A DNA stretch of 22,185 bases, taken from a virus (taxonomy: Duplodnaviria; Heunggongvirae; Uroviricota; Caudoviricetes). A program made the translations under genes and the position numbers. Shown piece by piece: positions 19,921 to 22,185 of the stretch; the stretch's first letter is position 1; every line of letters starts with the position of its first letter. Below the pieces are notes generated by a model, which was not told where the DNA came from, did no database searches, and saw only the letters and a program-made list of their open reading frames with translations. The stretch lies in the IMG/VR virus record IMGVR_UViG_2606217102_000016; one strand, written 5' to 3'.

Positions 19921-22185
19921 ATGAGTAAAGTCTTTATTTGCGCCGCTATTCCTGACGAACTGGCAACAAGGGAAGAAGGCGCTGTGGCTGTAGCCACAGC
20001 CATTGAAGCTGGCGACGAACGCCGTGCTCGAGCAAAATTTCACTGGCAGTTCCTGGAACATTATCCGGCTGCTCAGGACTCCGCTTATAAATTTATTGTC
20101 TGCGAGGATAAACCTGGCATACCCCGCCCTGCCCTCGATTCATGGGATGCTGAATATATGCAGGAAAACCGCTGGGATGAGGAGTCTGCTTCTTTTGTCC
20201 CGGTTGAGACTGAATCCGATCCGATGAACGTCACTTTTGACAAGCTGGCCCCTGAAGTACAGAACGCTGTCATGGTTAAGTTCGACACATGTGAAAACAT
20301 CACCGTTGATATGGTTATTAGCGCACAGGAATTGTTGCAGGAAGACATGGCAACATTCGACGGACATATCGTTGAAGCGTTGATGAAAATGCCAGAAGTT
20401 AACGCCATGTATCCGGAGCTTAAGTTGCACGCCATTGGGTGGGTTAAGCATAAATGTATTCCTGGTGCTAAATGGCCCGAAATTCAGGCAGAGATGCGCA
20501 TCTGGAAAAAACGTCGCGAAGGTGAACGCAAGGAAACCGGAAAATACACGTCTGTTGTTGATCTCGCCCGCGCCAGAGCCAATCAACAGTACACTGAAAA
20601 TTCAACAGGAAAAATCAGCCCGGTCATTGCTGCCATTCATCGCGAATACAAGCAGACATGGAAAACACTGGATGACGAACTGGCCTACGCTCTCTGGCCT
20701 GGTGATGTGGATGCCGGAAACATTGACGGCAGCATCCATCGCTGGGCAAAAAAAGAAGTTATCGACAACGACCGCGAAGACTGGAAGCGTATCTCGGCAT
20801 CAATGCGCAAACAGCCTGATGCCCTTCGCTACGACCGCCAAACTATTTTTGGCCTTGTCCGTGAGCGTCCGATCGACATTCACAAAGATCCCGTAGCACT
20901 GAACAAATATATCTGCGAATACCTGACGACAAAGGGCGTGTTTGAGAATGAAGAAACAGACCTGGGCACTGTTGATGTTCTCCAGTCATCAGAAACACAA
21001 ACTGATGCAGTGGAAACTGAGGTATCTGATATCCCAAAAAATGAAACCGCGCCGGAAGCTGAACCATCTGTAGAGCGTGAGGGGCCGTTTTATTTCCTCT
21101 TCGCAGATAAGGACGGAGAAAAATACGGTCGCGCAAACAAACTTTCTGGTCTGGATAAGGCACTGGCTGCTGGCGCCACTGAAATCACAAAAGAAGAATA
21201 TTTTGCCCGAAAAAATGGCACATACACGGGCTTACCGCAAAATGTAGATACCGCTGAAGATTCAGAACAACCAGAGCCGATAAAAGTTACCGCTGACGAA
21301 GTAAACAAAATTATGCAGGCAGCCAATATCAGCCAGCCTGACGCCGATAAGTTGCTTGCTGCATCACGTGGTGAATTTGTTGAAGGGATTAGTGACCCGA
21401 ATGATCCGAAATGGGTTAAGGGGATCCAGACCCGCGATTCTGTGAACCAGAACCAGCATGAATCGGAACGGAACTACCAAAAAGCGGAACAAAACAGCAC
21501 AAATGCGTTACAAAACGAGCCAGAAACGAAACAGCCTGAACCAGTGGCGCAACAGGAAGTGGAAAAAGTCTGCACCGCCTGCGGTCAGACCGGCGGCGGC
21601 AACTGCCCTGATTGTGGCGCGGTGATGGGCGACGCAACATACCAAGAAACATTCGATGAAGAGTATCAGGTTGAAGTTCAGGAAGATGATCCGGAGGAAA
21701 TGGAAGGCGCTGAACATCCACACAAGGAGAACACTGGCGGCAATCAGCATCACAATAGCGATAATGAAACTGGCGAGACGGCAGATCACTCAATTAAGGT
21801 GAACGGTCATCACGAAATCACATCCGCCAGTAGGACGTGTGACCATCTAATGATCGACCTTGAAACCATGGGAAAAAATCCTGATGCCCCGATTATCTCA
21901 ATAGGTGCAATATTTTTCGATCCGCAAACCGGAGATATGGGACCGGAATTTAGTAAGACTATCGATCTGGAAACTGCTGGCGGAGTCATTGATCGGGACA
22001 CCATTAAATGGTGGCTTAAGCAATCACGCGAAGCGCAATCTGCCATTATGACCGATGAAATCCCGTTAGATGATGCACTGTTACAATTGCGGGAATTTAT
22101 CGACGAAAACTCCGGTGAATTTTTTGTTCAGGTCTGGGGAAATGGAGCCAACTTCGACAACACGATTTTGCGCCGTTCATACGAA
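19921..22185 (+). CDS. Large RecE/exodeoxyribonuclease VIII-like early protein, partial (first ~755 aa; continues beyond the right window edge), with DnaQ-like DEDD exonuclease motifs near residues 640-755
   Basis: ATG at 19921 with SD GAGGT; the frame is open to the window end, which is why it is absent from the supplied track. The N-terminus [44 protein letters not shown]... and the linker ...[33 protein letters not shown]... match my memory of enterobacterial prophage exonuclease VIII proteins (memory only). A CxxC...CxxC zinc ribbon ([16 protein letters not shown]) is followed by LMIDLETMG ... [15 protein letters not shown], resembling DEDD Exo I and Exo II motifs. Confidence 0.75.
   Translation, partial: [755 protein letters not shown]

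Follow-up and report, generated by a model that had tools for sequence, protein, structure and literature searches.

The window analysed here (the whole stretch of 22,185 nucleotides of IMG/VR virus record IMGVR_UViG_2606217102_000016, from a virus of the Caudoviricetes) ends inside a plus-strand gene for a protein that carries a RecE-type N-terminal region and, in place of the RecE nuclease, a predicted 3'-5' exonuclease domain of the DEDDh type. This gene is referred to here as ydfE-type, after the Escherichia coli K-12 pseudogene ydfE, of which it is the intact form. We consider it probable that its product is a 'nuclease-swapped RecE', that is, a 3'-5' DNA exonuclease without a phage annealing protein. 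The same RecE-type N-terminal region occurs with either of two nucleases that are unrelated and opposite in polarity, with RecT present only beside the form ending in a PD-(D/E)XK nuclease. The nuclease swap and the RecT pattern therefore suggest that the N-terminal two-thirds of RecE constitute a separable module, with a function independent of 5'-3' resection and of RecT. RecE is a workhorse of recombineering, and the natural domain-swap variants and a short conserved motif described below provide a means of testing the role of its N-terminal region. The value of the ydfE-type gene lies in such comparisons; considered purely as sequence, it is unremarkable.

The open reading frame (ORF) starts with an ATG at position 19921, preceded by a GAGG about 10 nt upstream, and its 755 codons are free of stops as far as the window end, as had been described in the first-pass annotation of the window. 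The complete ORF was retrieved from near-identical genomes. The window ORF displays 99.7% DNA identity to genes of thousands of E. coli chromosomes, and in the 99.7–99.9%-identical genomes and in Escherichia phage HannyBb the full gene has 2472 nt and encodes 823 amino acids (aa), annotated as 'exonuclease' or '3'-5' exonuclease'; 68 codons, including those of an H-x4-D motif, fall beyond the window end. The window product is 99.8% identical to the HannyBb protein and differs from WP_032166410.1 ('exonuclease') by three residues only (DNA 99.7% identical). In a 99.7%-identical full-length copy, aa 1–256 are 100% identical to K-12 YdfE (pseudogene b1577), and over these residues the window copy differs from K-12 YdfE solely at residue 54. 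Because of this match, the window gene can be taken as the intact form of ydfE, which in K-12 is a pseudogene cut by IS2E and located just upstream of intQ. The K-12 pseudogene would accordingly be the stump of a predicted 3'-5' exonuclease gene.

The ydfE-type gene is real, ordinary and already catalogued in the RefSeq names, in PHROG 2082 (phrog_2082 matched the protein over its full length) and in Pfam, in which PF27430 and PF27432 are the families precomputed for the YdfE-type N-terminal region (our proteins P0001–P0099). Of the 5426 complete E. coli genomes, 3490 gave a match to at least 80% of the gene, and 4069 (75%) contained DEDD-module DNA, with up to 7 copies per genome. RecE nuclease DNA was found in 1736 E. 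coli genomes, less than half the number of those with the DEDD module. The gene is also carried intact by the isolated phage HannyBb. Our searches of the literature on ydfE, on Rv2179c together with prophages and on RecE together with DEDD domains yielded no functional study of a ydfE-type protein. The parts of the protein within the window are as follows.

19921..22185, plus strand: ydfE-type 'exonuclease' ORF, first 755 of 823 codons (translation, near-identical full copies).
20068..20616, plus strand: aa 50–232, divergent counterpart of the N-terminal (PF06630) region of RecE (hhalign).
20653..20940, plus strand: aa 245–340, helical domain common to RecE aa ~278–352 (BLASTP, hhalign; AlphaFold2 predicted local distance difference test score, pLDDT, ~93).
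21082..21219, plus strand: aa 388–433, small beta/alpha domain (GPFYFLF...GRANK...; AlphaFold2 pLDDT 87–95, consensus).
21367..21438, plus strand: aa 483–506, 24-residue conserved motif, candidate docking motif (alignment).
21571..21615, plus strand: aa 551–565, Cys4 zinc ribbon CxxC-x7-CxxC, corresponding to RecE aa 518–532 (alignment, AlphaFold2 pLDDT 70–76).
21625..21843, plus strand: aa 569–641, acidic disordered linker (20 D/E vs 3 K/R).
21844..22185, plus strand: aa 642–755, first two-thirds of the DEDDh (Rv2179c/DexA-like) domain (Pfam, profile, Foldseek).

The assignment of a DEDD-type exonuclease in the first-pass annotation, which was based on an Exo I-like LMIDLETMG and an Exo II-like N-x-x-F-D sequence, was borne out by a HMMER search against Pfam. 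PF16473 (curated cutoff 27 bits) matched aa 642–755 of the window fragment (E=1.4e-40, 139 bits, model positions 2–119 of 177), a match that is not due to chance and that ends at the window end, and on the 823-aa protein the whole model was matched by aa 642–813 (E=1.5e-67, 227 bits). Exo I lies at aa 643–651 (window 21847–21873; D646 and E648) and Exo II at aa 738–747 (window 22132–22161; D746). Exo III, H796-x4-D801, is visible only in the 99.7%-identical full-length copies, past the window end. The five residues D646, E648, D746, H796 and D801 are invariant across 22 aligned homologues of 58–87% identity. An AlphaFold2 model built from a 54-sequence alignment gave a pLDDT of ~95 for the domain, which has the RNase H-like alpha/beta fold typical of DEDD nucleases. 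Among solved structures, Foldseek ranked the exonuclease DexA of phage T4 first (8KEL/8KEN; E 2e-11), ahead of RNase T, REXO2/oligoribonuclease and Cap18, and its probability was 1.0 for DexA, RNase T, REXO2 and Orn; DexA (8kel) was also recovered by a sequence-profile match (E=4e-16). Neither a PD-(D/E)XK domain (PF12684/DUF3799) nor PF06630 was detected by Pfam in the 823-aa protein. The DEDDh domain is thus placed by these matches at the C-terminus of the protein, with its catalytic pentad intact and a predicted DexA/RNase T-like fold.

The relationship to RecE (exonuclease VIII of the Rac prophage of E. coli K-12) was provisional in the first-pass annotation, and our alignments confine it to aa 50–627. 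In BLASTP comparisons with K-12 RecE only aa 262–627 aligned, to RecE 278–592; the match is moderate over aa 262–340 and near-identical in the stretch that starts at 'LLAASRGEF' and takes in both zinc ribbon and acidic linker, and nothing in RecE aligned with aa 640–823. Homology is also evident in the DNA, where nt 1425–1867 (aa 475–622) correspond to recE nt 1365–1765 (aa 455–588) with 78% identity, and it ends inside the acidic linker, at aa ~622, equivalent to RecE residue 588. Residue ~588 is where the nuclease domain of RecE begins and is the boundary of the nuclease fragment that is sufficient for recombination, and the gene is a mosaic with its junction at this boundary. The first 250 residues look unrelated to RecE by BLAST. 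However, hhalign of the trimmed N-termini revealed a remote match between aa 50–232 and RecE 45–254 (prob 96%, E 2.5e-9), which persisted when a hybrid sequence was removed, with a value of 0.07% for the reversed-profile control. Because this profile-profile match adds aa 50–232 to the central homology, the non-catalytic part (aa ~1–625) can be regarded as a homologue of the RecE N-terminal region, and the nuclease cannot. The RecE-family assignment consequently stands for the non-catalytic part and fails for the nuclease. The NCBIfam exonuclease VIII equivalog NF007259 gave 283.5 bits against a cutoff of 1269, over model positions 271–602 only. Homology to RecE spans the N-terminal ~600 residues, in which both proteins have the RGEF..DPNDPKW motif, a Cys4 ribbon and an acidic linker. 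RecE ends in a PD-(D/E)XK 5'-3' exonuclease (DUF3799), and its translation is coupled to that of recT, whereas the ydfE-type protein has a predicted DEDDh 3'-5' exonuclease end and no recT. Replacement of the C-terminal nuclease by a DEDDh domain points to a distinct architecture, which was the second of two alternatives left open in the first-pass annotation and the correct one.

Within the N-terminal platform, aa 50–232 lie in two modelled domains, an alpha/beta domain (aa 1–100) and a helical one (aa 105–206), both with an AlphaFold2 pLDDT >90, and no fold match to the platform was found in PDB or BFVD. The small domain at aa 388–433 is kept in YdfE-type relatives and could not be aligned to RecE. 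The most conserved stretch of the central region common to RecE-type and DEDD-type proteins is aa 483–506, with the core RGE..GISDP.DPKWV.GI.TRD, near-every position of which is invariant in 7 diverged RecE- and DEDD-type proteins, one of them without the zinc ribbon. This segment was modelled with low confidence (pLDDT ~50–57) and is probably disordered, and it looks like a short docking motif, for which it is our candidate. The zinc ribbon had been recognized in the first-pass annotation with a spacing of 13 residues between its CxxC pairs; the ribbon is present at aa 551–565, with a spacing of seven. The acidic linker reported there was found at aa 569–641, with the charge bias listed above.

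When 1.84 billion representatives were searched exhaustively with HMMER and the matches scanned against Pfam, all four combinations of head and tail were encountered, together with forms without a Pfam-detectable nuclease.

PF06630 head and DEDD tail: phage vB_EcoS-813R8 (813 aa), P0240, P0242, P0264, P0266, P0270, P0278 and P0315.
PF06630 head and PD-(D/E)XK tail: RecE.
YdfE-type head and DEDD tail: the window gene.
YdfE-type head and PD-(D/E)XK tail: P0247, P0342, P0345 and the 987-aa protein of contig L012.
YdfE-type head and no Pfam-detectable nuclease: P0243, P0245, P0251, P0254, P0272, P0293, P0311 and P0322.

The gene of phage vB_EcoS-813R8 displays 98% DNA identity to the window gene from aa 454 onward, and the combination of head and DEDD domain recurs with heads and linkers that are only 40–50% identical. 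In the region 5609–9621 of L012, a gene encodes a YdfE-type head (87% identical) with a PD-(D/E)XK tail, and a RecT-family gene (PF03837, E 2.7e-44) starts 11 nt after it, with an integrase further on. The L012 gene thus represents the reciprocal swap of domains as it occurs in nature. The contig is labelled 'MAG: Proteobacteria bacterium CTSoil_132', and in sequence it resembles an Escherichia-like prophage. The eight relatives without a detectable nuclease are 700–790 aa long, with heads 30–45% identical, and may be the 'RecE-2' proteins of PMC12315714.

The distribution of recT follows the type of nuclease. The K-12 recT gene overlaps recE at the latter's end, and for the 1736 E. coli genomes with RecE nuclease DNA, each of 12 sampled rows had recT under the match. 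None of 82 DEDD-type loci had a RecT match (tblastn with K-12 RecT as the sole probe, flanks up to 7 kb), and where the flank was covered the gene ran straight into xis-int. The early-left ORFs of the window gave no PHROG recombinase match, and the HannyBb genome has no annotated recombinase. The central-region scan gave 4 loci on genome contigs, too small a number for comparing species, and 80 on viral contigs, the latter nearly all near-identical E. coli prophages, so the absence of recT is robust for the E. coli prophage lineage and not phylogenetically broad. The exchanged unit appears to be 'PD-(D/E)XK nuclease + RecT' versus 'DEDDh nuclease alone'.

The DEDD module also exists as a stand-alone protein (~180–190 aa, 56–62% identical), often carried by phages and prophages whose hosts are Salmonella, Klebsiella, Citrobacter and Enterobacter. 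In phage epsilon34, the stand-alone homologue is flanked by SSB and Abc2 and has a putative Sak4-like recombinase as a neighbour, and in phage LLS gp34 ('DnaQ-like exonuclease') is encoded immediately upstream of xis-int, the slot occupied by the DEDD part of the ydfE-type gene. Both epsilon34 gp34 and LLS gp34 are 56–60% identical to aa 640–822 but are free-standing, and the recombinase/SSB/Abc2 module of epsilon34 has no counterpart beside the ydfE-type gene. DnaQ-like 3'-5' nucleases have been reported in the Rec modules or early-left operons of lambdoid phages, with a 'sporadic' occurrence near int, and they usually inhibit recombination (PMC12315714, Genome Res 2025). A fusion to a RecE-type head is not described in that article, in which the word 'fusion' is absent and the single 'fused' refers to capsid genes.

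Taken together, the ydfE-type protein is most likely, to judge by its domains and gene neighbourhood, a 3'-5' DNA exonuclease of the early-left operon that is independent of a single-strand annealing protein. No sigma-70-like site was found just upstream of the gene on its own strand, and the gene is therefore probably transcribed as part of the early-left transcript, from which the protein would be made early after prophage induction or infection. Its activity would be that of a Mg2+-dependent 3'-5' exonuclease attacking the 3' ends of DNA. The RecE-type platform would deliver the nuclease, through the long acidic linker, to the same partner or site as in RecE, and the nuclease would work without a phage annealase. 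Possible roles include the trimming of 3' tails such that host RecBCD and RecA could handle phage ends, a DexA-like salvage of DNA, and the exclusion of other phages. The biological role is the weakest step of this explanation.

Several observations weigh against the proposed function. A pro-recombination role is not obvious, because the 3' tails needed for annealing or RecA loading would be lost to a 3'-5' nuclease, and the same remark is made in PMC12315714. Targeting by the platform is a conjecture, since its N-terminal part has no fold match. PF16473 is named after the exoribonuclease Rv2179c, and DEDDh sequences cannot separate a preference for DNA from one for RNA. The loci of the recT census are mostly near-identical E. 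coli prophages and thus not independent, and RecT was the only annealing protein probed. Finally, the enrichment of Chi sites is modest (6 in the 22 kb of the window and 7 in the 45-kb genome of HannyBb), a weak link to RecBCD.

In a broader version of the proposal, the N-terminal 600 residues of RecE would form an autonomous platform independent of the type of nuclease, with the conserved motif and the zinc ribbon serving to dock some factor, from the host or the phage, at the ends of DNA, and the DEDD form would trim 3' tails for RecBCD/RecA in phages without a recombination module of their own. We put this forward as a speculation that is rather unlikely to hold.

It is less likely still that the gene serves for HREX-type prophage defence, with the DEDDh domain selectively digesting the 5-hydroxymethylcytosine (5hmC) DNA of superinfecting T-even phages. 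The structure of DexA has been solved, and EcD (HAK9828821.1), a stand-alone E. coli homologue of DexA, is reported to degrade T4 DNA, to digest DNA with 5hmC and to protect cells against T4 (PMC12153337, NAR 2025). The ydfE-type domain belongs to the same DEDDh subfamily, with D7/E9/D119/H186/D191 of DexA corresponding to D646/E648/D746/H796/D801; it lacks the extra loops of DexA, as PMC12153337 states for EcD, and it is prophage-carried in three quarters of E. coli genomes. In DexA, W152 and D169 recognise 5hmC and D90 is the Asp involved in tetramer formation. In the hidden Markov model alignment W152 corresponds to another aromatic residue, Y766, and D90 to D717, and D169 could not be aligned, a mapping that is uncertain at ~20% identity. 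On this mapping, the Asp retained at D717 would argue against defence, as the residue said to give EcD its specificity for modified DNA is Ala. Identity to DexA is ~20–22%, and DexA and EcD are stand-alone proteins of ~190–227 aa, whereas the ydfE-type domain forms the C-terminal part of a protein of 823 aa, a fusion to the RecE platform that a defence role leaves unexplained. Moreover, expression in a lysogen is doubtful for a gene that lies distally in a repressor-controlled operon and for which no separate promoter-like site was detected, and the PADLOC match was weak and generic for DEDDh (E 1.7e-5), giving no support for a described defence system.

A Rv2179c-like 3'-5' exoribonuclease that trims or degrades RNA during lytic growth (transcripts, DicF precursors or nanoRNAs) is, in our estimation, improbable to about the same degree as defence. 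PF16473 was founded on an exoribonuclease, RefSeq often so names the protein, the next-best structural matches are RNase T, oligoribonuclease and REXO2, and the operon yields the processed small RNA DicF. Rv2179c of Mycobacterium tuberculosis belongs to the same Pfam family, the whole model of which is matched by the ydfE-type domain, but it is a stand-alone exoribonuclease encoded in a bacterial chromosome, and the relationship is distant, since no Rv2179c chain of PDB was recovered by sequence at the thresholds used. The sequence alone cannot settle the preference, and DNA is favoured over RNA because DexA, the closest solved and characterised relative, is a DNA exonuclease, because on the RecE scaffold the DEDDh domain stands in for a DNA exonuclease, and because the stand-alone orthologues sit inside DNA recombination modules. 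Furthermore, the RNase T structures matched were bound to DNA, and Orn-type DEDD dinucleases do not distinguish RNA from DNA (PMC11706625), which also argues against a role confined to RNA.

A decaying mosaic of prophage recombination, non-functional and without selective value, appears very improbable. The K-12 copy is indeed a disrupted pseudogene, many fragments occur among the database proteins and the gene is visibly mosaic; however, the frame is intact in thousands of genomes, among the 3490 of 5426 with at least 80% coverage, and in the isolated phage HannyBb, the five catalytic residues are invariant across diverged homologues and the architecture recurs with strongly diverged heads and linkers. 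The first alternative of the first-pass annotation, a DEDD exonuclease domain within the N-terminal portion of RecE-family proteins in general, can be rejected with near certainty on the BLASTP, Pfam and DNA-homology boundary evidence: K-12 RecE (866 aa) contains only PF06630 (aa 2–178) and the PD-(D/E)XK DUF3799 (aa 615–850), none of its segments aligns to aa 640–823, the DEDD domain is C-terminal, starting just past the end of the RecE homology, and no support for the claim was found.

The window is that of a Qin-type lambdoid prophage, in which the gene is the last of the early-left (dicB-type) operon, directly upstream of xis-int. Toward the gene, the order is terminase, cspI-type genes, lysis cassette, Q and ydfU, hokD/sok, a 595-aa candidate defence gene, O-like replication genes, a DicC/DicA-like switch, small early-left ORFs with DicF, dicB/ydfD-like ORFs and the exonuclease gene. 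In the near-identical genomes and in HannyBb an excisionase and an integrase follow directly (xis-int or DUF4224-int). The other features located are as follows.

4454-4870, minus strand: cspA-type thermoregulator leader (Rfam).
12748-12922, minus strand: sok antitoxin RNA, adjoining hokD (Rfam).
13428-15215, plus strand: 595-aa ORF (DUF7380/DUF4209 in RefSeq; PADLOC PDC-S39, E 2.9e-102).
18076-19827, plus strand: small early-left ORFs of 103 aa, 205 aa (phrog_35040), 61, 97 and 81 aa (PHROG).
19225..19276, plus strand: DicF small RNA, upstream in the same early-left operon as the exonuclease gene (Rfam RF00039, 72 bits, E 2e-14).

DicF, sok and the cspA-type leader are typical elements of Qin prophages. 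The ORFs at 18076–19827, between the repressor and the exonuclease gene, are unlike ydfA/B/C of K-12 Qin and match those of phage HannyBb, and their PHROGs are all function-unassigned.

Six Chi sites (GCTGGTGG) are present in the window, at 5678, 11145, 11551, 11609, 11735 and 13183, with 0.5 expected from shuffles. Five of the six are on the minus strand, equivalent to the top strand when the map is drawn in the lambda style, and three of these five cluster at 11551–11742, inside the ydfU (DUF968) gene. The density in the window is about that of the E. coli chromosome. Phages of the 'high-Chi' class have 18 or more sites; HannyBb is far below this class, and Chi sites were dropped as support for RecBCD-dependent growth.

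The 595-aa ORF separates hokD/sok from the replication genes, is encoded on the strand opposite to its neighbours and is likely, from its match to the PADLOC candidate defence family PDC-S39, to be a moron or defence cargo gene.

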